From Candidatus Aminicenantes bacterium (lineage in GTDB: Bacteria > Acidobacteriota > Aminicenantia > Aminicenantales > UBA4085), in NCBI GenBank assembly GCA_030691735.1, contig JAUYDS010000079.1, positions 905 through 64,904 of the forward strand: a stretch of 64,000 nucleotides of DNA, given 5' to 3'. Position numbers and translations under genes: made by a program. The notes beneath the pieces were generated by a model, which saw nothing but the letters and a program-made list of their open reading frames with translations, did not search any database and was not told the origin of the DNA. Numbering within the stretch: position 1 is the stretch's first letter; each line of letters begins with the position of its first letter. Below, in pieces: positions 5,201-55,634 of the stretch.

Positions 5201-8200
5201 TCACGGCCATCCCGGTCCTGGCTTTGTGGGCGGCCGCGCCGCTCGTCGCATATGCGCTGAGCCGGCCCGTGGTACCGCGACGTGTCGAGCTGGGGGAAGA
5301 GGACCGCTGGTTCCTCCGTCTCATTGCCCGCAACACCTGGCGATACTTCGAGGCGTTCATGGGCCCCGAAGACCACGGCTTGCCCGCGGACAATTTCCAG
5401 GAGACGCCGGAACCCCGGATCTCCCACCGGACGTCGCCCACGAACATCGGCATGGGGCTGCTCGCCACCCTGGCCGCTCACGATCTCGGCTTCATCCGGA
5501 CGGACGAGCTTGCCTCCAGGATCGACGCCACGCTGACCACGATGGAAGGCCTCGAACACTTCGACGGTCACCTGCTCAACTGGTACGACACGCAGAGCCT
5601 GGCGCCGCTCCTGCCGGCTTACGTGTCCACCGTCGACAGCGGCAACCTCGCGGGCGCGCTCATGACCCTGGCGGAAGGGCTGCGCCAGGCGAGCCGGCAA
5701 CCGCCGCCCACGGCCGAGCCGGCAGTCAAGGGACGAGCCTTCGCGGCGGCAGTCAAGGGACGAGCCTTCGCGGCGGAAGTGGACCCCCGGGCAAAGCCCG
5801 GGGCACTCACCCGCGATGTATATACGCGGCTGAGTACGGCGGAAGCGGATCCCCAGACAAAGCCTGCCCTCATTCGCTTCGCGAATGAGGACTGCAAAGC
5901 CCGGGGCCCGGCCGCCGCCCCGGCCGCCGTCGATCTCTCCCAACGCCTCCTTGACCTGGCGGGCCGCGCCGCCCGGTTCGCGGACGGGATGAGCTTCCGG
6001 TTCCTCTACGACCCGCAGCGCCGGATCCTCTCCATCGGCTATCGTCTCGCCGACGCCGAGGGGCCGGGCCGGCTGGATGCTTCCTACTATGACCTCCTGG
6101 CCTCGGAATCGCGGCTGACGAGTTTCATCGGCATCGCCAAGGGCGACCTCCCCGAAACGCACTGGTTCCACCTGGGACGGCTCATCACCGCCGTGGACGG
6201 GACGCCCACCCTCCTGTCTTGGGGCGCCACCCTGTTCGAGTACTTGATGCCGCTCCTCTTCATGAAGAGCTTTCCGGAAACACTCCTCAACCAGACATGC
6301 CGGATGGCCGTGCGGCGGCAGATCGAGTACGCGACGGATCGCGCCGTGCCCTGGGGGATCTCGGAGTCCGCCTACAACCTCGTGGACCGGCACGACAACT
6401 ATCAGTACAAGGCCTTCGGCATCCCCGGCCTCGGCCTGAAGCGCGGCCTGGGCGACGAGCTGGTGGTCGCACCCTACGCCACCGCGCTCGCCGCCGGGCT
6501 CGAACCAACGAAGGCCGCCCGCAATCTGCGGCGCCTGGCCGGGGAAGGTCTCGAAGGCGCCTACGGCTACTACGAGGCCATCGATTACACGCATGGGAAG
6601 ACCGACGAGCCCGAAAGCGCCGGGAGAAGAGCGGGCCTCCCCCGGGGAACGGTGGTGCGTGCCTTCATGGCCCATCACCAGGGGATGACTCTCGTGTCCC
6701 TTGCCAACGTTCTCCTCGGCGATCCGATGGTGAAACGCTTTCATGCCGACCCGCGCGTGCAGGCCACGGAGCTGCTGTTGCAGGAGCAGGTACCGCGCCT
6801 GGTGCCCATCACCCAGCCGCGACCGGTCGAAGAGACCCGCGTGGCCGGCCCGCTGCCCGCGCTGGCCATTCGCCGCTTCTGGTCGCCGCATACGCTGTTC
6901 CCTCATGCGCAGTTCCTGTCCAACGGCAACTACACCGCCGTCGTGACGAATGCGGGAGGGGGCGCCAGCTTCTGTCGAGGCCGCGCGGTCACAAGGCACC
7001 GGGAGGATCCGACCCGCGACCCGGGGAGCCAGTTCCTCTATCTGCGCGACGTGCGGAGCGGCTCGGTGTGGTCAGCAACTTTCCACCCCACCGCCAAGGA
7101 GCCGGAGGAGTACCTGGTCTCGTTCCTCGCGGAGAAGGCGACCTTTCGCCGCCGGGACGACGACATCGCCGTCCAGCTCGACATCGCCGTCTCGAACCAG
7201 GACGACGTTGAAGTGCGGCGCCTGGCGGTGACCAACCACAGCGATCGTCCCCGCGAGATCGAGATCACGAGCTTTGCCGAGATCGTCCTCGCCCCGCCGG
7301 CCGACGACCTGGCCCACCCGGCCTTCGGCAAGCTGTTCGTCGAGACGGAATACCTTCCCGAGAGCGCCGCCCTCCTCTGCCATCGCCGAGCGCGCGCCCC
7401 GGACGAGCCCGGGGCGTGGGCGATTCACGTCCTGAGCCTCGAAGGACGGAAGCAGGGGCCGGTGGAATGGGAGACCGACCGGGCGCGCTTCCTGGGTCGC
7501 GGCCGCGGTCCCGAGAACCCCCAGGCCCTCGACGGACGCTCCCTGTCCGGCACGACCGGGTTCGTACTCGACCCCGTCGTCAGCCTCCGGCAGCGCATTC
7601 GCCTCGCGCCGGGCGGCTTCATTAAGCTGTCTTTCGCCACGGGTATGGCGTCCTCCCGGGAGACGGCCCTGGCTCTCGCCCGGCGCTACCACGAGCCGAG
7701 CGCCGCGGCGCGAACCTTCGCCCTCGCCTTCGCCCATACGCAGAGCGGCCTCCGCCACCTTGGCATCTCGAGCGAACAAGCCTTGCTCTTCGAACGCCTG
7801 GCCTCGCGGGTGCTGTATACCGACGGATCGCTCCGCGCGAGCCCGGAGCTTCTGGCCCGCAACACCCTCGGCCAGGAAGGCCTCTGGCCGCACGGCATCT
7901 CGGGCGATCTCCCCATCCTCCTGGTGCGGGTCGTCGAGGAGGACGACCTGCCGCTGGTGCGCCAGGTCCTGCAGGCGCAGGAGTACTGGCGGCTCAAGGG
8001 GTTGAACGCCGACGTCGTGATCCTCAACGAGCACCCCGTGAGCTATCTCGACGAGATGCACGCGCTGCTCGTGGCCCTCCTCGACAATGGACCCTGGAGG
8101 ACCTGGAAGCACCGGCCCGGCGGGGCTTACCTGCTCCGTGGGGACCGCATGGCTGAAGCCGAGCGCATCCTCCTCGCGGGCGTGGCGCGCGCCGTCCTGA

Positions 8201-10791
8201 GCGGCGAGCGGGGAGATCTGGCCAACCAACTCGACTGGCTCGATCCCGAGTGGCCGGAGCCGGAGGAATTCGCGCCCTCCGCGGAGTCGAGCTCAGCCGC
8301 CGCGTCGCCGGCGCAGGTGGCCGTGCCTCCGCTCGCCCTGGCCAACGGCATGGGCGGCTTCGCCGACGACGGGCGCGACTACGTGGTCGTCCTTGAAGCG
8401 GCCCAGGAGACGCCCCTGCCTTGGGCCAACGTCATCGCCAACCCCGCGTTCGGGACCGTGATCACGGCCTCAGGGTCGGCCTACACCTGGTCGGAGAACA
8501 GCCGCGAGAACCGCCTCACGCCTTTCGCGAACGACCCCGTGACCGACCCCACGGCCGAGGCGCTCTTCATCCGCGACGATGAGACCGGAGAGACCTGGTC
8601 CCCCACGCCGGGCCCGATGCCCCGCACGGGCGGGGACGGTCGCTTCGTGATTCGGCATTCCGCCGGGCTGACTCGTTTCGCTCGCGTAGCGCACGGCCTG
8701 CGCCAAGACCTCGACGTATTCGTAGACGCGAAGGACCCGGTGAAATTCTCACTGCTCACGCTTACGAACGAAAGCGGAAGGGCGCGTCGCCTGAGCGTGT
8801 TCGCCTACAACGAGTGGGTGCTGGGGCCGCCGCGGGCGGGCCAGAGCACGCACGTGGTGACCGAGCTCGACTCCGCGACCGGAGCGGTCCTGGCCAGGAA
8901 TCCCTACAACCAAGAGTTCGCGGGGCGCGTGGCTTTCGCCCACGCGAGCGAAGGGCTGCGCTCGGCAACGGGAGATCGCTTGTCGTTCCTGGGTCGCAAC
9001 GGTTCCCTGGCGCAACCGGCGGCGCTCCGCCGTGAAGCCCTGTCGGGCCGCTTCGGAGCGGGGCTCGATCCCTGCGCCGCGCTGCACGTCTCCGTCACTC
9101 TGATCCCGGGGGAGACGCGCCTCCTTGTGTTCCTGGTTGGGCAGGGGAAGGATGGGAATGAGGCCCGCGAGCTTCTGGGCCGGCATGGTCGCGTGGACGC
9201 CGCGGAAATCGCCCGGGAGGCCGTGCGCCGGAGCTGGGACGGCATCCTCGACACGGTCCAGGTCCGTACGCCGGACGACTCCTTCGATCTGTTGATGAAC
9301 CGCTGGCTGCTCTATCAGGACGTGAGCTGCCGGCTGTGGGCCCGGTCCGCTTACCACCAGCCGAGCGGCGCCTTCGGGTTCCGCGACCAGCTTCAGGACG
9401 TCATGGCTTTGACGCTGGCCCGGCCGGATCTCATCAGAGAACACCTGTTGCGAGCAGCCGGCCGGCAATTCCTCGAAGGCGACGTCCAGCACTGGTGGCA
9501 CGAGCGGAGCGGCCGGGGCACCCGCACGCGCTGTTCCGACGACCTGTTATGGCTTCCCCACGCGGTAGCGCACTACGTCCGGACGACGGGAGACGCGGGC
9601 GTCCTCGATGAGCCGGCGCCCTTCCTGGAGGCCCCGCCGCTCGCCCCGGAAACGCAGGACGCCTACGTTCAGCCCCGCATCTCGACCGAAAAGAGTCCGA
9701 TCTTCGAGCATTGCCTGCGCGCCATCGACCGTGGACTGACCGCGGGCGCCCACGGCCTTCCCCTTATGGGGAGCGGGGACTGGAACGACGGCATGAACCG
9801 CGTGGGACGGGAAGGGCGCGGGGAGAGCGCCTGGGTGGGCTTCTTCCTCCACGTGGTCCTGAGCGAGTTCGCGCCGCTCTGCGAAGCTCGGGGGGACCAG
9901 GCCCGGGCCGAGCGCTACCGCGGCGAGGCCCGCCGGCTCGGCAGCATGCTGGAGCAGACCTGGGACGGCGAGTGGTACCGGCGCGGCTACTACGACGACG
10001 GCAAGCCTCTAGGCTCGGCCCAGAACGACGAGTGCCGGATCGACGCCACCGTACAGTCCTGGGCGGCGCTCTCGGGCGCGGTTCCCGTGCGCTACGCGGA
10101 ACGCGCCATGGACGCTGTCCGCACCCACCTGGTTCGGCGCGGACCTCAGGTCGTACTGCTGCTCACCCCGCCCTTCGACGAATCCATCCAGGATCCGGGG
10201 TACATCAAGGGCTATCCGCCCGGCGTGCGTGAGAACGGCGGCCAATACACCCACGGGGCTCTCTGGGTCGTCATGGCCATGGCCCGGCTGGGCAGCGGCG
10301 ACGAGGCGGTGGAGCTCTTCCACATGCTCAATCCCGTCAACCATACCAGGACCGCGGCCGGTGTCGGGCGCTACATGGCCGAGCCCTACGTCATCGCCGG
10401 AGACGTCCACGCCGACCCGGCACACGCCGGGCGTGGCGGCTGGACGTGGTACACCGGCTCCGCGGGCTTGATGTACCGCGCGGGCCTCGAGAGCATCCTC
10501 GGGCTCCGGCGCCGGGGCTCGACCTTCGAGATGGACCCCTGCATCCCGTCATCCTGGCTTGACTACGCGATCGTCTGGCGCTTCGGCCGGACGCGCTACG
10601 AGATCGCGGTCTCGAACCCGGAGCGCCGCTGCCGAGGGATCGCGGAGGCGGAACTGGATGGCGCGCCGGTCGACCCCCGCTCCATCCCTCTCGCCGATGA
10701 CGGCGGCACGCACCAAGTCCGGCTGGTGCTGGGAGACCCAAAGCGGCCCGTCCCGCCCGTTGCCGACCCGGGTGCCATCGCTTCTGCTTGA
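2269..10791 (+). CDS. ndvB: Cyclic beta-1,2-glucan synthase (Cgs/NdvB/ChvB family; GT84 domain plus C-terminal GH94 phosphorylase-like domain); the start is a TTG
   Basis: The 2840-aa product has TM clusters around aa 400-470 and 830-1000. A GT-A signature DSDT (nt about 4165) and [10 protein letters not shown] flank the glycosyltransferase domain. The C-terminal region is GH94-like ([27 protein letters not shown]). The size and architecture match Brucella/Rhizobium Cgs. Confidence 0.8.
5723..5930 (+). repeat. Composite, nested copy of the GC-rich palindromic mini-element, inserted in-frame in cgs (copy A)
   Basis: It contains a 27-bp tandem duplication of CAGTCAAGGGACGAGCCTTCGCGGCGG, the core hairpin GACCCCCGGGCAAAGCCCGGGG, a second hairpin module and a repeated GCCCGGGGCCCGGCCGCC tail. 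It is translated as [28 protein letters not shown]. Confidence 0.8.
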
Positions 10792-13655: not shown

Positions 13656-13669
13656 ATCGTTGCTGTCGA

Positions 13670-13704
13670 TTTTAGAGCGGAAAAGAGAAGTCTTGCGTCT
13701 TTCG
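13670..13704 (+). repeat. 35-bp repeat TTTTAGAGCGGAAAAGAGAAGTCTTGCGTCTTTCG (copy 1), followed by the hairpin TTCGGAGGG-ACG-CCCTCCGAA
   Basis: It is near-identical (two to three mismatches) to an inverted copy at 26731..26765. Confidence 0.7.
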
Positions 13705-16666: not shown

Positions 16667-16767
16667 GTCAAGGGACGAGCCTTCGGCTCGCCACTCGCCC
16701 GTGGCTTTTAACCACGGGCGAGTACGGCGGAAAGGACCCCCGGGCAAGCCCGGGGCCCCGGCCGCCG
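16667..16767 (+). repeat. GC-rich palindromic mini-element, long form with the extra hairpin module (copy B), intergenic
   Basis: The sequence is GTCAAGGGACGAGCCTTCG + GCTCGCCACTCGCCCGTGGCTTTTAACCACGGGCGAGTA + CGGCGGAAAGGACCCCCGGGCAAGCCCGGGGCCCCGGCCGCCG. Confidence 0.8.
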
Positions 16768-16789
16768 AGAAGGGATCCGGTCCCCCGCC

Positions 16790-18661: not shown

Positions 18662-19600
18662 ATGACACAAACAACGAAAGTTAGAGAGGGCGAGATCTGG
18701 GCCGTCGGCGGCGGCAAAGGCGGCACCGGAAAGACGTTCATCACCTCCAGCATCGGCACCTATCTGGCCAAGAAAGGCAAGAACGTCGTCCTCGTCGACA
18801 TGGACATCGGCGGGGCCAATCTCCATTCGTTCTTCGGCATCAGCCGCCCCCTGAAGTCCCTGACCAGCTTTTTCGAGATGGGGGCGTCTCTCTCCGACCT
18901 CGTGGTCAAGACCGACCTGGACAATATCTCCCTCATTTCGGGCGACGTCCATTCCATCTCCGCCGACAAGATCACTTTTTCCCAGAAGCTCAAGCTCTTC
19001 CGGCAGATCATGAAGCTCAATGCCCAGAACGTGATCATCGACCTGGGCGCCGGCAGCCACTACAACACCCTCGACACCTTCCTGATCGCCGACCGGATGG
19101 TGGTGGTTCTGGTCCCCGAGGTGATCGCCATCGAGAACATGTACCATTTCATCAAGAACTCCCTGTTCCGAAAGGTCAAGAAGATCCTCAAGGAATACGG
19201 CTTCAAAGAGATCGTCCAGCACATTTGGGACCGCCGACAAAGCTACGGGATCAACAACATCAGGGAACTGATCGACTATCTCAAGGATAGCTTCTCCTAC
19301 ATCGGCACGATCCTGGACCACGAGCTGGCCGCTTTCAAGGTTCACCTGGTCCTGAACATGGTCCGGAACAACAACGATATCCTCCTCGGCGCCTCGATCA
19401 AGAGCGTCATGATGAAGTACCTGGGCGTCCCCATCCAATATTCCGGCTACGTCGAATACAACGACGCGGTCTGGAAATCGGTCCGCGAGCGCAAGCCCTT
19501 CATGATCAACTATCTGGCCACCGGCTGCGCCAAGGAGATCGAGGTCCTTGTCGAAAATGTGATCAAAGGCAAAGAGGTCAGCTTGCCGGGAGGCTATTGA
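18662..19600 (+). CDS. MinD/ParA-family P-loop ATPase
   Basis: The product has the deviant Walker A GGGKGGTGKT and MinD-like Switch regions. The 312-aa product overlaps the next gene by 4 bp. Confidence 0.75.
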   Translation: MTQTTKVREGEIWAVGGGKGGTGKTFITSSIGTYLAKKGKNVVLVDMDIGGANLHSFFGISRPLKSLTSFFEMGASLSDLVVKTDLDNISLISGDVHSISADKITFSQKLKLFRQIMKLNAQNVIIDLGAGSHYNTLDTFLIADRMVVVLVPEVIAIENMYHFIKNSLFRKVKKILKEYGFKEIVQHIWDRRQSYGINNIRELIDYLKDSFSYIGTILDHELAAFKVHLVLNMVRNNNDILLGASIKSVMMKYLGVPIQYSGYVEYNDAVWKSVRERKPFMINYLATGCAKEIEVLVENVIKGKEVSLPGGY

Positions 19601-20166
19601 TGCCCAAGGACGAACTCAAGAAATATTACGACATGCTCGAACTGCCGTCGGACGCGCCTCTCCGGGACATCCATAACTCCTTCCTGCGCCTGAAGAAGCT
19701 CTATTCGGGCGATTCCATCGTCCTGGCCCCCCTCGGTGAGGAATTCTCCGAGAAAAAGCGAAAACGCGTGCTCGAGCAGATCGAAGAGGCTTATCTCAAG
19801 CTGTTGGAGGCCAAAAAGGACGCGCCGTCCAGGACGGCCCTTCTCTTTTCCGACGGGCACGAGCCCGAGGACGGCGCCGAGAGGGATAAAATCGGCGACG
19901 CTCCGTTGACCGGCCCGTCGCTCCGCAAGCTTCGCGAAAAGGCCGGCGTCGATCTGAACGAGATCGCCAAGGAAATGAAGCTGCGGATGGAACTGTTGAA
20001 GAGCGTCGAGGACGAGAAATACGAAGCCCTGCCCGAGGCGATCTACCTCAAGGTCCACCTCAAGAATTACGCCTCGTTCCTCGGCTTGGACCCGGTCCGG
20101 GTCACCGAGGAATATCTCCGGCGCTATCAGGCCTGGAAAGAAAAGACCGTCCCCACCGAGAAATAA
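19597..20166 (+). CDS. Small cytoplasmic protein with an N-terminal J-like domain (no HPD) and a C-terminal HTH_25 (RodZ-type) helix-turn-helix
   Basis: The N-terminus YYDMLELPSDAPLRDIHNSFLRLKKLY resembles J-domain helices II-III. The C-terminus LRKLREKAGVDLNEIAKEMKLRMELLKSVEDEKYEALPEAIYLKVHLKNYASFLGLD matches the RodZ N-terminal HTH. Confidence 0.5.
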   Translation: MMPKDELKKYYDMLELPSDAPLRDIHNSFLRLKKLYSGDSIVLAPLGEEFSEKKRKRVLEQIEEAYLKLLEAKKDAPSRTALLFSDGHEPEDGAERDKIGDAPLTGPSLRKLREKAGVDLNEIAKEMKLRMELLKSVEDEKYEALPEAIYLKVHLKNYASFLGLDPVRVTEEYLRRYQAWKEKTVPTEK

Positions 20167-20245
20167 TTTCTCCGGATAACTCCCTTTCTAATCAACCCAA
20201 CCCCCGACTTACGACCAGGGATTTGCAGCGACACTATAAAAGTCG

Positions 20246-20320
20246 GACGTGGCTAATCCCCCCTTCTCCCCCCTTTAGTAAAGGGGGGGAAGCGAGCCCC
20301 CCTTTTCTAAAGGGGGGATT
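20246..20320. terminator. GC-rich tandem-hairpin repeat element (copy 1) acting as a bidirectional terminator between convergent genes
   Basis: GACGTGGCTAATCCCCCCTTCTCCCCCCTTTAGTAAAGGGGGGGAAGCGAGCCCCCCTTTTCTAAAGGGGGGATT shares its first 33 nt with the copy at 23289. It abuts the stop of the purF-like gene. Confidence 0.65.
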
Positions 20321-21725
20321 AATCCGGCTCGACGCCGTCCCAGCAATAGGTGCAAAGCCGCTCTTTAGGCAGGCCGATGGCCGCCACGAGATCCTCGAGG
20401 TGCTGGTACTTGAGGGTCGTCAGGTTCAATCTCTGCCGGATCCTTTCTTCCATGGCCTTGTACTTGTCCGTGTCTTCTCTGGTGTAATCCGTCAGGTCGG
20501 CCGGGTATTCGCCTTCGATCTCGCGGATGGCCCGCCGGGCGGCCAGGTCCATCTCCGACCGGGAGACCGAAAAATTCAGGAACTTGCAGCCGAAGACGAG
20601 CGGCGGGCAGGCCGGCCGCATATGGACCTCCAGGGCTCCGCAATCGTAGAGCCGCTGGATCGTGTCCTGGAGCTGGGTTCCCCGGACGATGGAATCCTCG
20701 CAGAAGAGGAACTTCTTGCCCTTGATCAGGTCGCCGATGGGGATGAGCTTCATCCGGGCGACGAGGTCCCGGACGCCCTGGCTCTGGGGCATGAAGCTGC
20801 GGGCCCACGTGGGCGTATATTTGACGAACGGCCGCTTGAACGGGACGCCGGATTCGGCCGCGTAGCCTAGGCCGTGACCGACACCCGAGTCCGGGATCCC
20901 GGCCACGAAATCGATCGGGACCGGGTTGTGCTTGGCCAGGAACGCGCCGCAGCGGTTCCGCGCGTCCTCGACGTTGATGCCTTCGTAGCTCGAGGCCGGG
21001 TAGCCGTAGTAGACCCAGAGGAAGGCGCAGATCTGAAGCTTGTCGCCCGGCGCCTGTTTCTGCTCGCACCCCTCGGGGGAAATGAAGAGGATCTCTCCGG
21101 GTCCCAGATATTTTTCGACCTCGAAGCCGAGGTTGGGGAAGGCGCACGTCTCCGACGTCACGGCGAAATTGCCCGCTTTCTTACCGAGGACGATCGGTGT
21201 CCGGCCCCATTTATCGCGGCCGGCGTACAGGCCCTTTTCGGTCAGGATGAGGACGGAGCAGGAGCCCTCGATGGAATCTTGGAGGTTCCGGATCCCCGCT
21301 TCGAAGCTTTCCTCCTGGTCGATGAGCGTCGCGGCCAGCTCGGTCGGATTGATCCCGCCGGCGCCGATCTCGGTGAAGTGCAGACCTCTCTTCCGGAAAA
21401 GGTCCTCGGACAGCGCCGCGGCGTTCTTGATGGCGCCGACGGTGACGATGGCGTAATCCCCGAGATGGGAACGGATGAGAAGGGGTTGGTCGTCGAAATC
21501 GCTGATCACCCCGATGCCGGCCCAGGAATGCATCCGGTCGAGGTCCGGATCGAACTTGGAGCGGAACTGGGCGTTCTCGATGTTGTGGATGACGCGGACA
21601 AAACCGTCCTTTTGGCGGACGGCCAGCCCGCCCCGCTTCGTCCCGAGATGGGAATGGTAGTCCGTGCCGTAGAACAGGTCGGCGATACAATCGTCCCAGG
21701 AAGCGATCCCGAAAAATCCTCCCAT
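20319..21725 (-). CDS. Amidophosphoribosyltransferase (PurF) homologue lacking the N-terminal catalytic Cys (the N-terminus is MGGFFGIAS); [4Fe-4S]-type C-terminus
   Basis: The product is collinear with PurF. The PRPP loop FLFCEDSIVRGTQL matches (cf. LLVDDSIVRGTT), and the C-terminus carries CTYCW. An ATG start with a GAGGGGGA RBS is present. Cys1 is replaced by Gly. Confidence 0.75.
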   Translation of the reverse strand: MGGFFGIASWDDCIADLFYGTDYHSHLGTKRGGLAVRQKDGFVRVIHNIENAQFRSKFDPDLDRMHSWAGIGVISDFDDQPLLIRSHLGDYAIVTVGAIKNAAALSEDLFRKRGLHFTEIGAGGINPTELAATLIDQEESFEAGIRNLQDSIEGSCSVLILTEKGLYAGRDKWGRTPIVLGKKAGNFAVTSETCAFPNLGFEVEKYLGPGEILFISPEGCEQKQAPGDKLQICAFLWVYYGYPASSYEGINVEDARNRCGAFLAKHNPVPIDFVAGIPDSGVGHGLGYAAESGVPFKRPFVKYTPTWARSFMPQSQGVRDLVARMKLIPIGDLIKGKKFLFCEDSIVRGTQLQDTIQRLYDCGALEVHMRPACPPLVFGCKFLNFSVSRSEMDLAARRAIREIEGEYPADLTDYTREDTDKYKAMEERIRQRLNLTTLKYQHLEDLVAAIGLPKERLCTYCWDGVEPD

Positions 21726-21747
21726 ATATCCCCCTCGTCGTTCGGGC

Positions 21748-23178
21748 CTAACGGCTCTCGGGCTCCGCGTGAACGAGCACCCGGACTAGGCCCGGGATCC
21801 TCTCTTTCAAGCGTTCCTCGATGCGGGTAGACACATCATGAACTTGGATGATCGATAGCTGCTTCTCGAAGTGACAGTGCAGTGAGACCGAATAATTGTC
21901 GGCGTGGCGCCGGACCATGACGTTGTGGCAGCGGGAAGCGCCGGCGACCTTATTGGTGAGCTTTTTGACCTTGTCCACGAGGGCCGACTCCCGGGACGTC
22001 ACATCGACGCCTTCGCCGATGCCCGTGCCGCGGGATTCGATGTGGGTGTTGATCTGGGTGATCTCGGGCATGTCGTCCCTGAGGTCTTTTTCGATATGCG
22101 TCGCCAAGTCGTGGGCTTGCTGCAGGGACAGATGGTCGTCCACCTCGAGGTGGAGGTCGACCAAGACTCGATCGCGGTCCTCGTGCAGGCTGATGTTGTG
22201 GACGCTCATCTGGTCCCGGTAGGCGATGGCCCGGATCCGCTTGGCCTTGGTCTCGCGCTCGACCTCGCGTGGGTCGGTGTGAATGACGACGTCGGCGCCG
22301 GGAGCGACGCTCTGCACGCAGGCCTCCACCGATTCGGCGATGGCGTGGGTCCGTTCGAAGGACAGGTTGCGGTCCACGTCCACGGCCATGTCCACGAAGA
22401 CGCTCGGGCCGGACCGCCGGAGCCGGACCTGGCCGACGCTCAACACGCCTTCGATGGCACCGGCGGCCTCGGAGATCTTTTGGGCCAGGCCGTCCGGGGC
22501 CCGGTCGAGGAGGACGTCCACGGTCCGTTTGCCGAGCTTATAGCTTATAAACAGGACGATGAAGGCGACGCCCAGGGCGGAGACCGCGTCCGCCTTTTGC
22601 AAAAGCTCCGCCTGGCGGTGAAAGACGTGTTTACCGAGCCAGACGAGGAGCAGACCGCCGATGACCACGCTCGAGCTCCACACGTCCGTCGAAAAGTGGA
22701 GGGCATCGGCTTCCAAGGCTTGGCTGTGATGCTTCCGGGCGGCCCGGTAGAGCATCCGGGACCGGCTCACGTCGACGCCGATGGAGATGACCATGACCAA
22801 GAACGCCCAGAGGCTGGGATCGATCTCGATGGTCTGAAAGCCGATGCGGCGGACCGCCTCGTAGATGATCCAGGCGCAGGTGACGAAGAGCAGGACCGTC
22901 TCGACCAGGGCGGAGAAGTTCTCGATCTTACCGTGGCCGTAGGTGTGATCATGATCGGCGGGCTTATCCGAGACGCGCACGGCCAGGAAAGTGATGAAAG
23001 CGGCGACCAGGTCCAGGCCGGAGTGGGCCGCTTCGGCCAGGATGCCCAAGCTTCCCGTGAGGATCCCGACGACCAGCTTCATGGAGGTGAGGAAGAGGGC
23101 GGCGAAGACGGAATTGCCGGCGGCGGCTTTCTTGTCATGCGCGGCGGACAAACTCTGCGGGGACGCTTCAGATGTCAT
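21748..23178 (-). CDS. Cation diffusion facilitator (CDF) family metal efflux transporter with duplicated cytoplasmic C-terminal domains
   Basis: The product has 6 TM helices with the metal-site motifs HSGLDLV and HDHTYGHGK, followed by two ZT-dimer-like domains. Confidence 0.8.
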   Translation of the reverse strand: MTSEASPQSLSAAHDKKAAAGNSVFAALFLTSMKLVVGILTGSLGILAEAAHSGLDLVAAFITFLAVRVSDKPADHDHTYGHGKIENFSALVETVLLFVTCAWIIYEAVRRIGFQTIEIDPSLWAFLVMVISIGVDVSRSRMLYRAARKHHSQALEADALHFSTDVWSSSVVIGGLLLVWLGKHVFHRQAELLQKADAVSALGVAFIVLFISYKLGKRTVDVLLDRAPDGLAQKISEAAGAIEGVLSVGQVRLRRSGPSVFVDMAVDVDRNLSFERTHAIAESVEACVQSVAPGADVVIHTDPREVERETKAKRIRAIAYRDQMSVHNISLHEDRDRVLVDLHLEVDDHLSLQQAHDLATHIEKDLRDDMPEITQINTHIESRGTGIGEGVDVTSRESALVDKVKKLTNKVAGASRCHNVMVRRHADNYSVSLHCHFEKQLSIIQVHDVSTRIEERLKERIPGLVRVLVHAEPESR

Positions 23179-23288
23179 CGCTGTTTTGATGCTCCGGAAG
23201 GACTCTCATTTTAACATAGCCTCGGAGACGGAGCAATCGAGAGCGACCCGAAATTGCCGATAGAGCTTGTCATCGCGAGGAGCGGAGC

Positions 23289-23344
23289 GACGTGGCTAAT
23301 CCCCCCTTCTCCCCCCTTTATTAAAGGGGGGAGAAGGGGGGATT
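23289..23344. terminator. 47-bp perfect palindrome AATCCCCCCTTCTCCCCCCTTTA-T-TAAAGGGGGGAGAAGGGGGGATT preceded by the shared GACGTGGCT flank (copy 2)
   Basis: It lies downstream of the stop of the minus-strand M16 peptidase gene (23440). The stem is about 23 bp and perfect. Confidence 0.7.
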
Positions 23345-23439
23345 AGCATGGAGGTTGCCACGCTCCCTTCGGTCGCTCGCAACGACAAGAAAATTAACTA
23401 CTTCCCCTTTCTATCGGCAATTTCGGGGAGCGACACGGG

Positions 23440-25038
23440 CTATTTCAACTTGACGATGTGGACCGTTCCGGCGCCGTACTTCTTGGCCAGTCCATCGATC
23501 GTCCGGCCTCCGAACTTGGCGGCCATGGCGTCGATCGTCGGCTGGTTCGGGAGCATGTTGTTGGCCCCGGCCTTGCATTCCTCGATGTTGCCGGCGACCA
23601 TGATGATCATCTTGTCCGGCTGCAGCCACTTCTGGGCGACCCGCTTGAGGTCGGCGACCGTCACTTTCTCGTACTTGGCCAGATAGGCGTCGTAGTAATT
23701 CATCGGACGGCCGGTGAATTCTAGGTTGGCGAAGTTCTGGATGATGGAGCCGACCCCCGAGAACATGGACGGAAACGCGTTGACCCGGGCGCTCTTGGCC
23801 ATTTTGAGATCGGCTTCGCTGACGTCCCCGTTATGCATTCCCTCGATGAGGTCCAGCATCAGTTGGGAGGCGAAGACGACCGTCGAGTTCTTGGTCTGAC
23901 AGGAGGCCGTGAACGTCCCGGGGTAGAGTATCCCGGCTCCGCCGCCTCCTCCACCGCCGCGCGGACCGCCGCCCCCGCCGCCGCTGAAGCTGGAACTGGT
24001 GGAGTAGGCCAGCCCGTTATCGGTCCGCACGACCTTGGTGATGCGCGAGGAGAACGAGCCGCCGCCGAGGATGTAGTTCATCAAGTCGACCGCGGCGTAG
24101 TCGGGGTCGTCCACCATCAGGCCGAGATGCCCGATGCGGATGATCCCCTGGTTCGGGATGACCTCGGGTTGGACCATGTAGACGCCCGCCTTGGACGCCT
24201 GTTGGACCTTTGGAATGGGCGGCACGGCTTTCTCCGCCTTGGGCCATTTCCCGACCGTGGCTTCCAGCTTCTTCATCATCTCCGCTTTTTTGAAATCGCC
24301 CGAGACCACCAGGATGGCGTTATTGGCCCCCCAATACTTCTTGTGCCAGGCGATGAGGTCGGCCCGGGTGATGCCGGTGATCGTCGCTTCGGTCGTTTCC
24401 TGGGTGATCGGCGAGTTTTCACCGTAGATCAGATCGCTGTAAACGCGGCCGGCGACCTCGGAGACGTTTTTATTGCGATTCCGGATCGCGGGCAGGGCCT
24501 GGTCCTTCTCGCGGCGGAGCTTGTCGTCGGGGAAGGCCGGGTTCGTCAGGATGTCCATCCAGATCTTGAGGCCCTCGTCGAGATACTTGATGTTGATGGA
24601 CAGGTTGCGGGCCGTGACCGTCCCCGCCAGGAAGTCCATCCGCTCGTTGATCTGCTCGCCGGTCATCGTCGTGCTGCCGCCCGAGCGCATGATCGAGCCG
24701 GCGAAGCCGTCCACGCCCAGCTTGTCCTTGGGCTCGAGGAAGGGCCCGGTCCGGACGAGCAGCGATGCGGAAAACCAGGGGATCTCGTGATCCTCGGCGA
24801 TATAGACCACCAGTCCGTTCGAGAGCTTCGTCCGGAATTCGGACGCTTTGGGCACCTTGAAGTTGAGCGGAGGGTAGGTGAATTGTTCCGGGCGAGGTCC
24901 CTTGGGCGTTTGTCCGCTTTGAACGGCGGCTTGCGCCGGGTTGGTCCCGGCGGCCTGCGCGTCGACCGCGAAAACGAAAACGAGCAGGAGCAGGACCGGG
25001 ATGAACCATGAACTGAAATGTCGTCTGATCATTGTCAT
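23440..25038 (-). CDS. M16 family peptidase-like protein, likely non-catalytic partner subunit, with a signal peptide and a poly-Gly insertion
   Basis: The product has the M16 fold but no HxxEH motif. It contains the low-complexity stretch SGGGGGGPRGGGGGGGAG and an N-terminal signal sequence. Confidence 0.7.
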   Translation of the reverse strand: MTMIRRHFSSWFIPVLLLLVFVFAVDAQAAGTNPAQAAVQSGQTPKGPRPEQFTYPPLNFKVPKASEFRTKLSNGLVVYIAEDHEIPWFSASLLVRTGPFLEPKDKLGVDGFAGSIMRSGGSTTMTGEQINERMDFLAGTVTARNLSINIKYLDEGLKIWMDILTNPAFPDDKLRREKDQALPAIRNRNKNVSEVAGRVYSDLIYGENSPITQETTEATITGITRADLIAWHKKYWGANNAILVVSGDFKKAEMMKKLEATVGKWPKAEKAVPPIPKVQQASKAGVYMVQPEVIPNQGIIRIGHLGLMVDDPDYAAVDLMNYILGGGSFSSRITKVVRTDNGLAYSTSSSFSGGGGGGPRGGGGGGGAGILYPGTFTASCQTKNSTVVFASQLMLDLIEGMHNGDVSEADLKMAKSARVNAFPSMFSGVGSIIQNFANLEFTGRPMNYYDAYLAKYEKVTVADLKRVAQKWLQPDKMIIMVAGNIEECKAGANNMLPNQPTIDAMAAKFGGRTIDGLAKKYGAGTVHIVKLK

Positions 25039-25065: not shown

Positions 25066-26625
25066 CTACTTTTCCCGCTCCAATACGCCGGTGACGCAGT
25101 TGTCCTTGGTCAAATATTTCTTGGCGACCCGCATCAGGTCGGCCGGCGTCACGGCCAGGCGCTGCTTGTATTGGTCGTCGAGATGCTGCCAGCGGTAGGC
25201 CACTTCCATCGAGGCCAACTGGACGGCGATCCCCGTCCCGGCCAGGCTTTGGAGATAGCGGGCTTCGACCGAGTTCTTCACTCTCTGGAGCAGCGTTTCA
25301 TCGCAGAGCGTGTTCTTCGCCTCTTCGATGTAGCCCCAAAGCTCTTTCTCGAGTTGATCGAGAGGAACGACGGGGGCGTTCTTGATCTCCTTGGCCGTGG
25401 CGCTGACCTGGAACTCGCCGTCATACTCGGAATTGGAAGCCCGGACCATGACGTTGGTCGCGTGCTCGTTCTTCAGGACCAGGTCAAGGTACATCTTGCC
25501 CGTCCTCGCACTCATGACCTGGCTCAGAATAGACAGGGGGCCCAGGTCGTCGTGCCACAGCGGCGGGATATGGAACAGGATCTGGACGCTTGGGTTCGTC
25601 GCGGCCCGGCCGAGGACGCGCTTCTCGACATAGGGCGCCTTGAAATCCGGCCCGTTGACCTTCCGGTAATATTCAGGCGAAGGCTCCTCGGTGCGCACGC
25701 GCGGCGCGGGGCCTTTGGACGGGATCGCCCCGAAGTATTTATTGATTAAGGCCATGGTCGGCTCGACATCGATGTCTCCGGCCAGAACCATGACCGCGTT
25801 ATCGGGGCGATAATACTGGCTGCGATAGTCCATCATCTCTTGTTTGGTGATGCGGCTGACGTCGGACATCCAGCCCAGGACTTCCCAGTGGTAGGGGCTG
25901 GCGGCGTAGAACGTGGCGTTAAGCTGCTCGCTGAAGAAGAAGCCGGGTCTGTTCTCGCTCATCCGGCGCTCTTCGACGATGACGTCGCGCTCCGAATAAA
26001 ACTCGCGGAAGATGGGGTTGACCATCCGGTCCGCCTCGAGGGCGAAATAGAGCTCGAGCTTGTTCTTCGGGAGCGTGACGTAGTATTGGGTCATCTCCTT
26101 CCCCGTCGAGGCGTTCAGGCCGGTCCCGCCGGCCTCCTGATAGGCGCCCCAGATCTCCTCGCTGACGATCGTTTCGGCCTTCTCCTTCGTCAGCAGGTCC
26201 GAGGCCTGCTTCTTGAGGGCCATGATCTTGGCCTCGTCGCGGCCCTTGATCTTGGACTCCTCGGCCACGATCTGCTCTTCCAGCGCGTCGATCTGCCGGT
26301 TGTACTCGCTGTCCTTCTCGAGAGTGCCCGGCTTGATGCCCATCGTGTAGGTGCCTTTGAACATCATGTGCTCGTGGAAGTGGGAGATGCCGGTGATGCC
26401 CGGCCGCTCGTTCACCGCACCGACCCGGTAGGCCAGGATGCAGCGGACCGTGGGCGTGTCCGCCCGCTTGACCATCAAGACCTTCAGCCCGTTGGGCAGG
26501 GTTCGTTCGATGACCTGCTTCGTCAGACTGAGCTCTTGGGCCGCGAGAGGTGCCAGGCCGACAAACAATAAGAGTGGGATCAAAATGATTATACGTGCGA
26601 ATTTGCGAGAAATCATAGGCTTCAC
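25066..26625 (-). CDS. M16 family zinc metallopeptidase (pitrilysin/insulinase-like), secreted
   Basis: The product has the inverted zinc-binding motif HFHEHMMFKGT and a signal peptide. It lies in tandem with the inactive paralogue. Confidence 0.8.
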   Translation of the reverse strand: MKPMISRKFARIIILIPLLLFVGLAPLAAQELSLTKQVIERTLPNGLKVLMVKRADTPTVRCILAYRVGAVNERPGITGISHFHEHMMFKGTYTMGIKPGTLEKDSEYNRQIDALEEQIVAEESKIKGRDEAKIMALKKQASDLLTKEKAETIVSEEIWGAYQEAGGTGLNASTGKEMTQYYVTLPKNKLELYFALEADRMVNPIFREFYSERDVIVEERRMSENRPGFFFSEQLNATFYAASPYHWEVLGWMSDVSRITKQEMMDYRSQYYRPDNAVMVLAGDIDVEPTMALINKYFGAIPSKGPAPRVRTEEPSPEYYRKVNGPDFKAPYVEKRVLGRAATNPSVQILFHIPPLWHDDLGPLSILSQVMSARTGKMYLDLVLKNEHATNVMVRASNSEYDGEFQVSATAKEIKNAPVVPLDQLEKELWGYIEEAKNTLCDETLLQRVKNSVEARYLQSLAGTGIAVQLASMEVAYRWQHLDDQYKQRLAVTPADLMRVAKKYLTKDNCVTGVLEREK

Positions 26626-26730: not shown

Positions 26731-26765
26731 CGAAAGACGCAAGACTTCTTTTTTCCGCTCTAAAA
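26731..26765 (-). repeat. 35-bp repeat (copy 2, inverted relative to copy 1 at 13670)
   Basis: CGAAAGACGCAAGACTTCTTTTTTCCGCTCTAAAA is the reverse complement of the 13670..13704 sequence. Confidence 0.7.
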
Positions 26766-26774
26766 ACGATCGGA

Positions 26775-36315: not shown

Positions 36316-37497
36316 ATGAGCGGTATTGTCGTGGCCAGCGCTGTCCGAACGGCCGGGGGAAAGTTCGGCGGCGCGATTTCCAAAATCTCAGCTGTCGATC
36401 TCGGGGCTCACGTCTTGGCAAGAGCCGTCAGCCAGGCGGGGATCGATCCGGGGCAGGTCGATGAAGTCGTCTTCGGGACGGGATGGCAGGCCGGGATCGG
36501 GCCGAATGTCGGACGGCTGGCCGCTGTCCGGGGGAAGCTGCCCTACGAAATTCCCGCCTTCACCGTCAACAAACGCTGCGGGTCTTCTCTGAAGGCCTTG
36601 ACCTTAGCTGTTCAGATGATCAAGGCCGGAGACGTGGATGTCGTCCTCGCGGGCGGGGCTGAAAACAGCTCCCAGGTGCCCTACATCGCCGAAGGCGCCC
36701 GATGGGGGAACCGCATGGGCGACAGCAAGCTGATCGACCTCCTTCATCGGGACGGTTTCATGTGTCCTCTAGCCGGGCATCTGATGGGCAACACGGCGGA
36801 GACCCTCGCCGAGAAGTACGACATCGGCCGCCAGGAGCAGGATGCTTTCGCCGCGGAAAGCCAGGAAAAAGCGGTCCGGGCCATCCGCGAGGGCAAGTTC
36901 AAGGAGGAAATCGTTCCCTTTGAAGTCCCCGGGAGCCCGAGTCAGGCCGAGATGTTCGATACGGACGAGATTCCGCGTGAGGGAGTGACCGTCGAAAAAC
37001 TGGCCAAACTTCCTCCTGTCTTTAAGAAAGACGGGACCGTGACCGCGGGGAACAGCTGCGCCCTCTGCGACGCCGCGGCAGCGGTTCTCGTCATGAGCGA
37101 GGAGAAGGCCGCGCGGCTCAAGGTCAAGCCGCTTGCCCGAATCGTCTCCTATGCTCACGCGGGCGTCGATCCCAAGATCATGGGCATCGGCCCCGTGCCC
37201 GCGATCAGGAAAGCCCTGGAGCGGGCCGGACTCCGGCTCGACGACATCGACCTCATCGAGCTCAACGAGGCCTTCGCCGTCCAGGTCCTGGCCGTCGAAC
37301 GGGAACTCCGCTGGGACCGGTCCAAGGTCAACGTCCATGGCGGAGCCATCGCCCTCGGCCATCCTGTGGGCGCCACGGGAGCGAAGATCTTCACCACGCT
37401 GGTCCACGCCCTGAGGGGCGGGGAAAAGAAGCTGGGTTTGGTCGGCCTGTGCATCGGCGGGGGCCAGGGAATCGCCGTCGTGGTGGAAAGGCTGTAG
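36316..37497 (+). CDS. Acetyl-CoA C-acetyltransferase (thiolase)
   Basis: The N-terminus MSGIVVASAVRTAGGKFGG, the thiolase Cys (NKRCGSSL) and the C-terminus GLCIGGGQGIAVVVE are all present. Confidence 0.9.
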   Translation: MSGIVVASAVRTAGGKFGGAISKISAVDLGAHVLARAVSQAGIDPGQVDEVVFGTGWQAGIGPNVGRLAAVRGKLPYEIPAFTVNKRCGSSLKALTLAVQMIKAGDVDVVLAGGAENSSQVPYIAEGARWGNRMGDSKLIDLLHRDGFMCPLAGHLMGNTAETLAEKYDIGRQEQDAFAAESQEKAVRAIREGKFKEEIVPFEVPGSPSQAEMFDTDEIPREGVTVEKLAKLPPVFKKDGTVTAGNSCALCDAAAAVLVMSEEKAARLKVKPLARIVSYAHAGVDPKIMGIGPVPAIRKALERAGLRLDDIDLIELNEAFAVQVLAVERELRWDRSKVNVHGGAIALGHPVGATGAKIFTTLVHALRGGEKKLGLVGLCIGGGQGIAVVVERL

Positions 37498-41738: not shown

Positions 41739-43001
41739 ATGACCAAGACGAAAAAAATCTTCGATCTCCCGGCAAACATCGCCGGAGGCGGACCGGCCCT
41801 GATGAAAGAAAAAAAGATGAAAATCGTTTTTCTTTCGGCCGTGCGAACCCCCTTCGGCGAGGCGGGGGGCTCGTTGAAAGACGTTTCCCCGATCGAGCTG
41901 GGAGCGTTGGCCGCCCGGGCGGCCATAAAAAGAGCCGGCCTCGAAGGCCGGGAAGAGTCCATCGATGAGGCGGTTTTCGGCAACGCCATGCCGGCCAGCA
42001 TTGATTCCCACTACGGGGCGCGCCACGTCGCCCTGAAAGCCGGGCTGAATTTTTTTACACCCGGCCTGACCGTCAACCGAATTTGTTTTTCGGGCGGCGA
42101 AGCCGTTATCCAGGGAGCCAAACAGCTCCTTCTGGAGGAAAGCCGGGTCGTGCTCGTGGGGGGCTATGAAAGCACGAGCCAATGCCCCGCGGTCCAGTTC
42201 GGTGCCGCTTTCGGATTTCCCTACATGGCGGGACCGAAGGTTTATTTTCTATTCAAAGACGGCCTGAACGACACTTATATCAACGACGACATGATGGGAA
42301 CGGCGGAGAATCTCGCCCGGCTTTACAGGATCACTCGCGCGGACGCCGACCGGATGGCCCTTTCTTCCCAACAGAAAGCGCAGGACGCCCGGCTCAAGGG
42401 CCGCTTGGCTAAAGAAATCGCCCCGGTCGTCCTGAAGACCAGAAAAGGAGAGGCCGTCATCGGCGAAGACGAGCATCCCAGGCCCGATACCACCTTCGAA
42501 CAGCTCTCCCGGCTGCACGCCGTGAAACCCGGGGGGATCCATACCGCCGGCAACTCCAGCGGTATCGTGGACGGAGCCGCGGCCTTGGTCATGTCCACGG
42601 AAAAGCGGGCCAAGGAGTTGGGCATCCCGCCCATCGGCGAGCTTCTTTCCTGGGGGACGGCGGCGGTCGATCCTCATTACATGGGGATCGGGCCCGTTCC
42701 CGCGTCGAAGATCGCCCTGGCCAGGGCCGGGATGGCCGTTGACGATTTGGATTTTATCGAGATCAACGAGGCGTTCGCCGGCCAGTATCTCGCCGTGGAG
42801 CGGGAATTGAAGCTGGACCGTTCCCGGGTCAACGTCAACGGAGGAGCCATCGCCCTGGGGCATCCGCTCGGTGCGACCGGTGCCCGTCTCGTCACCGCCC
42901 TGCTGACCCTGGGAGGGGTGGGGCTTGCCTCGGCCTGTATCGGCGGCGGCCAAGGAGGCGCGGTCATCATCCGAAGCTATGCGGACAAGGCGTCGATATA
43001 G
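41739..43001 (+). CDS. Thiolase (3-oxoacyl-CoA thiolase) with a roughly 26-aa N-terminal extension
   Basis: A GGGAGGAG RBS precedes the ATG at 41739. The thiolase core MKIVFLSAVRTPFG...CIGGGQGGAVIIRSY is present. Confidence 0.8.
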   Translation: MTKTKKIFDLPANIAGGGPALMKEKKMKIVFLSAVRTPFGEAGGSLKDVSPIELGALAARAAIKRAGLEGREESIDEAVFGNAMPASIDSHYGARHVALKAGLNFFTPGLTVNRICFSGGEAVIQGAKQLLLEESRVVLVGGYESTSQCPAVQFGAAFGFPYMAGPKVYFLFKDGLNDTYINDDMMGTAENLARLYRITRADADRMALSSQQKAQDARLKGRLAKEIAPVVLKTRKGEAVIGEDEHPRPDTTFEQLSRLHAVKPGGIHTAGNSSGIVDGAAALVMSTEKRAKELGIPPIGELLSWGTAAVDPHYMGIGPVPASKIALARAGMAVDDLDFIEINEAFAGQYLAVERELKLDRSRVNVNGGAIALGHPLGATGARLVTALLTLGGVGLASACIGGGQGGAVIIRSYADKASI

Positions 43002-46133: not shown

Positions 46134-47332
46134 TGAGAGAATCCATGGACGTGACCGATATCGTGGTCGTCGGTGGAATCCGGACGCCGATGGGGAAATT
46201 CGGCGGCGCCTTGAAGGATGTGGCGGCTTACGATTTGGGGGCGGCGGCGATTTCGGGAGTCTTGAAAAAAACCGGCCTCCCGGGCAAGGTCATCGATGAT
46301 GTCATCCTGGGAAGCTGTCGTCAGGCCGGAAACGGACCCAATCCTTCCCGCACGGCCATGGTCCGAGGAGGAATACCCGAAACCGTGCCGGCTTTGACCT
46401 TAAATATGGCCTGTCCGTCCGGGATGAGGGCCCTGGCCTTGGCCTCTCAAGCCATTCGCCTGGGGGAAGCCCAGGTCGTCCTCGTGGGAGGCTTCGACAG
46501 CATGAGCACGATACCTTACCTCCTCAAGGACGCTCGTTGGCAAGGATTCAAGATGGGCGACAAGGTGCTTCAGGACGGCTGGAGCGATTCGATCGACCCT
46601 CTCTGCAACTTAGGCATGGGCGAGACGGCCGAGAACCTTGCCGAGAAATACCAAATTTCGAGGCGGGAGCAGGATGAATTCGCCGCCTCCAGCCAGCAAA
46701 AAGCCGCCCGGGCCCAGGATGAAGGGTGGTTCGACGAGGAAATCGTTCCCGTCTCTGTCCCGCAGACGAAAGGAGATCCGCTGGCCTTTGGCCGGGATGA
46801 AACAATCCGCCGGGATACGACCGTGGACAGGCTGATGAAGCTGCCGCCCGTTTTCCGCAAGGACGGAAGCATCACGGCCGGAAACGCATGCCTGATGTCG
46901 GATGGGGCCGTGGCCCTGGTCGTCGCCTCTCGGTCGAAAGCTAAAGATCTAGGGTTGAAGCCGCTGTTTTCGCTCGTCTCTTACGCCCAATCCGCAGTGG
47001 ATCCCCGGTTTATGGGGGAAGGTCCGGCCGTAACGATTCCCCTGGCCTTGAACAAAGCGAAGATGACCCTGGCCGATGTCGACTTCATCGAGGTGAATGA
47101 GGCTTTTGCGGCCCAGGTCTTGGCCAACGAACGAATCCTCAAGTGGGACAGGGAACGACTCAACGTTCACGGCGGGGCGATCGCCCTCGGCCATCCCACG
47201 GGCATCAGCGGGGCCAGGATCTTGCTGACCCTGTACCATATCCTCAGGCTCCACGATGGAGAGACGGGCGTGGCCGGTATCTGCGGCGGGGGCGGAGTCA
47301 GCATGGCGGCGGTCATCCGGAGAGAGGGCTGA
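46133..47332 (+). CDS. Thiolase (acetyl-CoA acyltransferase), third copy in the cluster
   Basis: The thiolase signatures, with C-terminus GICGGGGVSMAAVI, are present. The start overlaps the upstream stop (TAATG). Confidence 0.85.
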   Translation: MRESMDVTDIVVVGGIRTPMGKFGGALKDVAAYDLGAAAISGVLKKTGLPGKVIDDVILGSCRQAGNGPNPSRTAMVRGGIPETVPALTLNMACPSGMRALALASQAIRLGEAQVVLVGGFDSMSTIPYLLKDARWQGFKMGDKVLQDGWSDSIDPLCNLGMGETAENLAEKYQISRREQDEFAASSQQKAARAQDEGWFDEEIVPVSVPQTKGDPLAFGRDETIRRDTTVDRLMKLPPVFRKDGSITAGNACLMSDGAVALVVASRSKAKDLGLKPLFSLVSYAQSAVDPRFMGEGPAVTIPLALNKAKMTLADVDFIEVNEAFAAQVLANERILKWDRERLNVHGGAIALGHPTGISGARILLTLYHILRLHDGETGVAGICGGGGVSMAAVIRREG

Positions 47333-47458: not shown

Positions 47459-47468
47459 AGAAATAAAA

Positions 47469-55597: not shown

Positions 55598-55634
55598 CCC
55601 GGCCGCCGCTGCCCCGGATGGACTGGAGGAAGGC

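Follow-up and report, generated by a model that had tools for sequence, protein, structure and literature searches.

Two C6/G6 mini-palindromes in an Aminicenantes contig are probable copies of a small palindromic insertion element that also occurs in frame within bacterial genes

[quoted passage not shown] The same passages single RPEs out for unusually frequent in-frame insertion, and the 2002 Ogata paper, as cited there, terms coding palindromes "unique" to Rickettsia. Here we describe the C6/G6 mini-palindrome, two copies of which lie in a 64,000-nt stretch of a Candidatus Aminicenantes genome (contig JAUYDS010000079.1, positions 905–64,904; the whole stretch is hereafter called the window). 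Both are probably copies of a small, non-autonomous palindromic insertion element that spreads selfishly within and between genomes, and the best-supported description is of an element that resembles repetitive extragenic palindromic (REP) sequences and MITEs in form and RPEs in its tolerance of coding sequence. As far as the review's account of RPEs extends, the two are alike in being palindromic, in lying between genes and often in frame within unrelated housekeeping genes, to whose products they add a short peptide that does not destroy the protein, and in encoding no transposase. The C6/G6 element is likewise found inserted in frame in unrelated protein-coding genes; it differs from RPEs, as the review portrays them, in its length (~45 nt, ~15 amino acids) and in its range, since nearly the same sequence is met with in viral contigs and in at least seven phyla. 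The sequences are probably unrelated, size and host range set the two apart, and the resemblance is functional only.

REP sequences, whose super-families are defined by GTAG and CGTC tags (PMC3733652), and REP doublets forming hairpins (REPINs) share with the C6/G6 element a short GC-rich palindrome, many copies, clustering or nesting, ends that provide stop codons and some intragenic members (PMC3733652, PMC3116915); when transcribed, such repeats may stabilize mRNA 3′ ends (PMC3733652, PMC3116915). The C6/G6 element, in contrast, carries neither tag, has stems two to three times longer with a usual 3 × 2 internal loop, and is conserved across phyla with approximately 43% of its copies coding, whereas REPs are species-specific and "extragenic." A likeness to MITEs (Correia, ERIC, Nezha, and QMITE; PMC10969869) arises at one of the two window sites, where the element lies in a 181-bp composite with 18-bp terminal inverted repeats, a 6-bp direct repeat, and no open reading frame (ORF); a related copy of this composite with a different interior is present in a relative. 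The C6/G6 core differs from MITEs in having no target-site duplication, in being smaller than those described, and in occurring as the apex or passenger of larger palindromes. The small dispersed repeats (SDRs) of cyanobacteria, approximately 21–27 nt long, are reportedly nested in one another and in MITEs and are said to be apparently mobile. To our knowledge, the SDRs of filamentous cyanobacteria have no known transposase and have been described only in cyanobacteria. At the level of such general descriptions, SDRs and the C6/G6 element are both very small, nested, transposase-less repeats. SPRITE is a dispersed repeated hairpin that resembles a true intrinsic terminator. It offers a precedent for a dispersed terminator-like hairpin, from which the C6/G6 element differs by having no U-tract and by being common inside ORFs. 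The name SPRITE is among the abbreviations of PMC10969869. Literature searches that included literal sequence strings, with thin coverage of subscription journals, returned no description of the C6/G6 element or of the GTCATTGCGAG hairpin introduced below, and the C6/G6 family is apparently undescribed.

A collection of genomes was scanned with the pattern TAATCCCCCC-N3-5-CCCCCCTTT (TAATC6-N3-5-C6TTT), and loci and genomes were counted by hand from record titles and prefixes. The pattern matched at least 118 loci, compared with approximately 13 matches expected by chance (our own estimate, assuming uniform base composition), from at least 79 species-representative genomes; the Aminicenantes metagenome-assembled genome (MAG) is additional to these. 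Among the matches listed, 51 loci belonged to Nitrospirota, 40 to Desulfobacterota ("delta"), 7 to Nitrospinota, 5 each to Gammaproteobacteria and Cyanobacteria, 3 to an unclassified proteobacterial MAG, 1 each to an anammox planctomycete and Elusimicrobia, and 3 were unclassified and 2 were doubtful Bacteroidota, one of them on a homopolymer-ridden contig; the matching G-rich arm was present in most of those listed. A match in Lewinellaceae (L045) was rejected as a false positive of the pattern scan, because long homopolymer runs pervade its contig. In a second scan, 108 viral stretches from IMG/VR proved to carry the element. Plasmid and phage collections gave no blastn match to the consensus, probably owing to the low-complexity filter, and so carry no weight here.

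Members conform to the consensus A-AATCCCCCC-N3-CCCCCCTTT-N3-AAAGGGGGG-N2-GGGGGGATT-T (A-AATC6-N3-C6TTT-N3-AAAG6-N2-G6ATT-T) of approximately 45 nt, with 44–47 nt from AAT to ATT. The spacers are usually unequal (3 × 2); complementary spacers were seen in 2 of 70 simple members and a perfect palindrome in just 1 of the 70, and the perfect palindrome at the second window site is therefore atypical of the family. Some members depart from this form as half elements, as copies nested in one another, with arms in duplicate, or as two hairpins enclosed by an outer stem. Across phyla, the C6, G6, T3, and A3 blocks hardly change, unlike the spacers and loops, and orthologous copies stay intact while their flanks diverge (L033/L118 and L043/L073), as might be expected of a structural or regulatory motif (a protein-binding site, a nucleoid site, an element of RNA stability, or a G-quadruplex or i-motif former) kept by host selection. 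We regard such a motif as very improbable: decayed, half, nested, and duplicated-arm copies are frequent, placement relative to genes is close to random, close relatives differ in presence and absence, and no Rfam family matches. The invariance of the stem positions means that there is no covariation evidence for or against RNA structure. In the Rfam search of the window, tRNA alone reached the gathering threshold, and a relaxed threshold added only sub-threshold miRNA-hairpin matches. Three known classes were also considered and rejected, CRISPR for lack of regular spacing, tRNA-end mimicry for lack of TTCG before AATCC, and, provisionally, integron attC sites on the basis of their core-site motifs.

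An element was scored as lying within an ORF if the reading frame continued without a stop for 60 codons or more to each side. The scanned loci contained 166 elements, 148 of them usable, and 63 of the 148 (43%) lay in frame in long ORFs, compared with 59% of random 45-nt windows drawn from the same loci. The preferred frame, used by 42 of the 63, encodes NPPxPPFxKGGxGG[IF], approximately 15 amino acids. Six hosts were confirmed with Pfam, namely GluRS, chorismate synthase (AroC, with two inserts), BirA (also two), HisF, CobB, and KdtA; the domain match spans the insert in five of them, and that of HisF is split into two stretches. In orthologue alignments the inserts, 13–18 amino acids long, are present in some proteins and absent from others, and 3 of 19 Nitrospinota GluRS orthologues carry the element. 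No out-of-frame element that splits a gene was found among these loci, the candidates sitting just upstream of real start codons, and this absence fits translation through the intragenic copies. Occurrence in at least seven phyla together with frequent in-frame copies in housekeeping genes points to the behavior of a selfish repeat rather than of a dedicated terminator.

Several of the protein hosts show further features. Chorismate synthase of L044 and BirA of L040 each contain two independent element-derived inserts, so some genomes appear to be densely colonized. The same HisF loop carries the element in two phyla, in Nitrospirota (L051 and L087) and in anammox Planctomycetota (L094), and in the two Nitrospirota hisF copies further elements are nested inside the element. 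Three GluRS orthologues (P0122, P0123, and P0126) have a different Pro/Gly-rich insert, SPPPPPPPQVGREKGRGDI, beside the same loop (columns 326–344 of alignment A4), which is probably another coding palindrome family.

The preliminary description of this window had placed each copy at a gene end and asked whether other copies consistently sit at gene 3′ ends. The family does not show this: the intergenic elements that could be classified comprise 30 in tandem, 9 in divergent, and 7 in convergent spacers, without a bias toward gene 3′ ends, and in several cases a Shine-Dalgarno sequence and a start codon follow the element directly. In Nitrospirota, the conserved flank GGATTTGAGGTATTTTC(A)AATG sets the element directly before a Shine-Dalgarno-like GAGG and the start codon of genes that look like glgA, miaB, pyrD, and lysA, as judged on N-terminal sequences. 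Elements with this flank are the following:

L030, 3107–3175
L037, 3850–3919
L112, 1169–1225
L023 and L095

From their position, the element may carry or create ribosome-binding sites.

The two window copies are set among the following features, with the gene layout taken from ORFs and Pfam:

18662–19600, plus strand: ParA-like gene
19597–20166, plus strand: HTH_25 gene
20246–20253: GACGTGGC, 8-nt non-palindromic flank common to both sites (site 1 copy, from the repeat search)
20254–20321: site 1 core, an outer stem formed by TAATCCCCCCTT and AAGGGGGGATTA around two hairpins; the last 3 nt are the GATase_7 stop codon
20319–21725, minus strand: GATase_7 gene
21748–23178, minus strand: cation efflux (CDF) gene
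23295–23347: site 2 core, a perfect 53-bp palindrome, 26-nt arms 100% complementary around one central base
23440–25038, minus strand: M16_C peptidase gene
25066–26625, minus strand: M16 peptidase gene

As first described, the 18-mer GACGTGGCTAATCCCCCC is present at 20246 and 23289, and nowhere else in the window; approximately 0.09 occurrences were expected by chance, and none of 100 shuffles gave two. The sites have 43 nt in common (20246–20288 and 23289–23331; 98% identity, one mismatch), and GGGGGGATTA forms the terminus of both copies. The preliminary description had also reported a shared non-palindromic left flank of 33 nt, but the part beyond the palindrome amounts to only the 8 nt of GACGTGGC, and a flank of that length does not exist. 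At site 2 (GCTAATC6-TTCT-C6TTTA-T-TAAAG6-AGAA-G6ATTAGC), the palindrome is as perfect as had been stated and longer, 53 bp with 26-nt arms instead of 47 bp with a stem of about 23 bp. The predicted RNA fold of the whole site 2 region reaches −121 kcal/mol on each strand (z = −11), with the C6/G6 palindrome forming the apex. The two tandem hairpins noted at site 1 (20268–20288 and 20297–20317) are indeed there, enclosed by an outer stem in which 20254–20265 pairs with 20310–20321 at 12 of 12 positions; the site 1 fold is less exceptional than that of site 2, at −64 to −71 kcal/mol and with z scores of −4.1 (plus strand) and −3.0 (minus strand). Double hairpins of the site 1 type are also present in L031, L035, L039, L084, L089, L098, and L111.

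Both copies lie just past stop codons, as had been noticed. Site 1 lies between the convergent HTH_25 and GATase_7 genes and overlaps the GATase_7 stop codon (TTA, 20319–20321). All 80 of the GATase_7 homologues retrieved end at query residues 456–468, and all but one at 464–468, so the protein is not truncated. Site 2 lies between the M16_C stop and the CDF start, 116 nt upstream of the latter, which places it in the 5′ region of that next gene as well. An NCBI protein of a "Candidatus Aminicenantes bacterium" MAG matches the CDF protein at 100% identity. The Logan assembly of SRR13727536 contains a 3037-bp contig (L001) with two genes of the window, whose length matches the 3043-nt spacing of the copies; one end of it runs into the site 2 composite and stops where the shared repeat starts, an illustration of the way in which the elements break up metagenome assemblies. 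Errors are common in homopolymer runs and palindromes, and L045 is an example of a homopolymer-ridden contig, but we give next to no credence to poly-G read artefacts or chimeric amplification palindromes as the source of the element, since the same sequence context is found in the NCBI MAG and in the independent Logan assembly, members occur in many unrelated assemblies, including the complete chromosome OZ244197.1, and reading frames are preserved in conserved enzymes.

Site 2 is a nest of three layers, a 181-bp MITE-like composite (23247–23427) that contains a "GTCATTGCGAG" hairpin, which in turn bears the C6/G6 palindrome at its apex:

23241–23246: GAGCGA, left copy of a direct repeat and candidate 6-bp target-site duplication (sequence reading)
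23247–23264: CCCGAAATTGCCGATAGA, left terminal inverted repeat of the composite, complementary to 23410–23427 at 18 of 18 positions
23269–23296: GTCATCGCGAGGAGCGGAGCGACGTGGC, left arm of the middle hairpin, of the "GTCATTGCGAG...GCAATC" family; the last 8 nt are the flank in common with site 1
23357–23386: GCCACGCTCCCTTCGGTCGCTCGCAACGAC, right arm of the middle hairpin, imperfectly paired with 23269–23296, with bulges in the folds
23410–23427: TCTATCGGCAATTTCGGG, right terminal inverted repeat, complementary to the left copy at 18 of 18 positions
23428–23433: GAGCGA, right copy of the direct repeat (sequence reading)

The middle layer belongs to a separate, widespread hairpin family, "GTCATTGCGAG[CG]G.AGCG..GCAATC(TC) ... 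GAGATTGC..CTCGCAATGAC", that is present in ten other loci (L021, L028, L039, L048, L055, L067, L073, L091, L105, and L130). This family shares many genomes with the C6/G6 element, and the two directly abut in the window and in L028. In site 2, GACGTGGC (23289–23296) is thus the distal end of the second family's arm and not a private flank of the C6 element, and it was not found adjoining a C6/G6 element in the other loci searched (L001–L199). That it is the distal part of a middle-layer arm implies that site 1 was copied from such a composite, or the reverse, and not from a bare core.

The shared extension also bears on whether the family consists of REPs in the strict sense, mobilized by a REP-associated tyrosine transposase (RAYT) or IS200-like transposase encoded elsewhere in each genome, with GACGTGGC as the cleavage tag. 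An asymmetric 5′ extension shared by the window copies is reminiscent of Y1-transposase substrates, the absence of target-site duplication fits Y1 transposition, and a small multi-copy palindrome with an end that supplies a stop codon and occasional copies in ORFs recalls REPs (PMC3733652). We nevertheless consider this unlikely. The sole conserved flanking base is A at position −1 (46 of 63 and, in a second set, 17 of 20 unbiased flanks), with no GTAG or CGTC tetranucleotide beside members, and GACGTGGC, as described above, is part of another family's arm. The stems measure 20–26 bp compared with 8–9 bp for CGTC REPs (PMC3733652), the coding fraction of 43% is far above what "extragenic" implies, with the family not predominantly extragenic, and ORF clustering within approximately 8 kb of the at least 118 loci revealed no RAYT-like cluster.

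Syntenic contigs whose CDF proteins are 84–92% identical were used as relatives. Of five close relatives, four carry an ordinary terminator where the window has site 2: in L200, L201, L202, and L204 the spacer is approximately 115 nt and includes a canonical hairpin-plus-T7 terminator, which in L200 was detected by the terminator scan. In the fifth, L203, the spacer measures 73 nt, holds no terminator and no element, and resembles the window minus the 181-bp composite and minus one GAGCGA copy. On this comparison, the M16-to-cation-efflux spacer of the window is one that has lost the ordinary terminator kept by most close relatives. Near the same position, L205–L207 carry a 143-bp element with the same inverted repeats (CCCAAAATTGCCGATAGR) and a different interior, and in L205 it is flanked by its own 6-bp direct repeat, TTGGCC. 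Two hallmarks of a MITE are thus seen in the 181-bp composite, terminal inverted repeats (18 of 18) and a putative target-site duplication (GAGCGA). It has one copy in the window, and its only other copies, those of L205–L207, occupy almost the same place upstream of the orthologous gene; no parent insertion sequence with its inverted repeats was seen among these contigs. In L204, a half element, TGGGGGGATGGGGGG (115–145), directly follows the T-run of the M16_C terminator.

The preliminary description had suggested a repeated, possibly mobile, REP-like terminator cassette; on this reading, the hairpins would end transcription in both directions at site 1 and, at site 2, behind the M16 operon. 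In its favor, the composite lies where four close relatives have a canonical terminator, so something must now end or process that transcript, both copies follow stop codons, and the stems (12–26 bp) form extremely stable GC-rich hairpins. There is, however, no T-run on either strand, and a terminator scan of 19900–23700 was blank at both copies. Copies in frame inside essential genes, approximately 43% of members, are incompatible with efficient termination, and the intergenic members are not enriched at 3′ ends, some preceding a ribosome-binding site and start codon directly. We therefore think it quite improbable that the element is a terminator cassette.

At site 1, the relatives differ in whether and in what form the element is present:

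20174–20315: 142-nt insertion relative to the empty site of L203, flanked by GGATAA (20174–20179) and GGATTA (20316–20321)
20316–20325: GGATTAATCC, 10-bp palindrome, insertion target or footprint, which contains the GATase_7 stop codon and is intact in L203 and L200

L203 has the C-terminal extension of HTH_25 seen in the window and an exact empty site, reading CCGGATTAATCC joined to GCAGAAATTA; in the reverse complement of the window, CCGGATTAATCC is followed by the 142 nt and then GGAGAAATTA, with boundaries that can slide over a 4–6 nt repeat. The insertion is made up of decayed element pieces (20174–20245), the flank shared with site 2, and the core. In L204, the site holds a double-hairpin version that is longer and not the same, L200 has only a half element, into which the HTH_25 gene reads, and L201, L120, and L205/L206 have no element. 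Empty, half, and alternative versions in near relatives thus mark site 1 as highly unstable. In L201, a TonB-dependent receptor gene (6348–8834) lies between GATase_7 and HTH_25, that is, at this junction. The earlier impression of a repeated, REP-like, and mobile-looking sequence is supported by the number of loci, by the variation at site 1 among relatives, and by the inverted and direct repeats at site 2.

These data argue that the window copies belong to a mobile palindromic element, and several observations weigh against that view. Only two copies lie in the 64-kb window, a count that covers the window alone. The ORF clustering around the family loci revealed no transposase; the recurrent neighbors (sensor kinases, ABC ATPases, TPR proteins, and ferredoxin oxidoreductase) are all generic, so mobility is deduced from distribution and not from mechanism. 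At simple elements, 2 of 59 have a 2-nt flank repeat and none of the 59 has a 3-nt repeat, as would be left by target-site duplication. In the GluRS DNA, 12 nt of the empty allele have given way to the 45-nt element, so that the filled allele is 33 nt longer and shows no duplication; this is a poor fit to classic cut-and-paste transposition. The element is nearly unchanged at the same site in orthologues that are only 53–54% identical, which could mean selection on the element, contrary to purely selfish DNA; re-insertion at the same site, gene conversion between copies, and selection are all possible sources of this constancy. The composite and its L205 counterpart lie 68 and 70 nt from the cation-efflux start, and a conserved regulatory inverted repeat is therefore possible there; the constant spacing between the terminal inverted repeat and the start codon, seen in two lineages, also speaks for host selection. 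Finally, the change at site 1 may be an insertion or a precise deletion that gave the L203 state.

We still judge a small palindromic insertion element to be the probable identity of both copies. At site 2, the element would ride at the apex of the MITE-like composite, and at site 1 it would have arrived as part of the 142 nt inserted into the palindrome GGATTAATCC, where GATase_7 has its stop codon; this place may be an insertion hotspot. Elements could be moved in trans by some enzyme or captured at breaks or palindrome centers. Where transcribed, the hairpins would act at most as RNA 3′-end barriers or roadblocks, as reported for REPs, and as a side effect; by analogy with REPs, such effects could include a block to 3′ exonucleases, a roadblock, or a stand-in for the site 2 terminator of relatives.

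More tentatively, and with doubt as to its generality, the family may represent a pan-bacterial, coding-compatible micro-element of approximately 45 nt, open in four of six frames and near-invariant in at least seven phyla and in (pro)phages. Such an element would colonize housekeeping genes in frame almost as readily as spacers, nest in palindrome centers, and insert without target-site duplication, sometimes replacing a few bases. The lack of duplication together with occasional base replacement would imply a mechanism unlike known DDE or Y1 transposition, and capture at breaks or hairpin loops by host machinery might be one.

The window holds other repeats. A second dispersed family, GTCAAGGGACGAGCCTTCG...GGACCCCCGGGCAAAGCCCGGGGCCCCGGCCGCCG, has its own GC-rich hairpin and five to six copies:

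5725–5934
16667–16772
47353–47460
51653–51677
55530–55598
58648–58716

A 39-nt sequence, TCGATTTTAGAGCGGAAAAGAGAAGTCTTGCGTCTTTCG, forms an inverted pair (13666–13704 and 26731–26769) 13 kb apart and 95% identical. Both copies are situated just behind a gene end, on either side of the locus described here. A 243-nt segment is present in three diverged copies (62–70%) at 37159–37401, 42660–42902, and 46991–47233, approximately 4.3 and 5.5 kb apart, which probably reflect paralogous genes in tandem cassettes.

For annotation, the hairpins of the window should not be labeled terminators. The interest lies in the family they reveal and not in the two copies themselves, and a 45-nt sequence that is near-identical across phyla without a visible transposase or target duplication is a mechanistic puzzle. 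If the pan-bacterial reading is true, RPE-like protein-coding palindromes would be a general bacterial phenomenon and not a peculiarity of Rickettsia. A general family would also account for many Pro/Gly-rich inserts of the "low-complexity" kind (NPPxPPFxKGGxGG) in proteins of Nitrospirota, Desulfobacterota, Nitrospinota, and other groups, as well as recurrent metagenome contig breaks in those groups, and it would amount to a large experiment of nature that shows which loops of a protein can accept an insertion of 15 residues.

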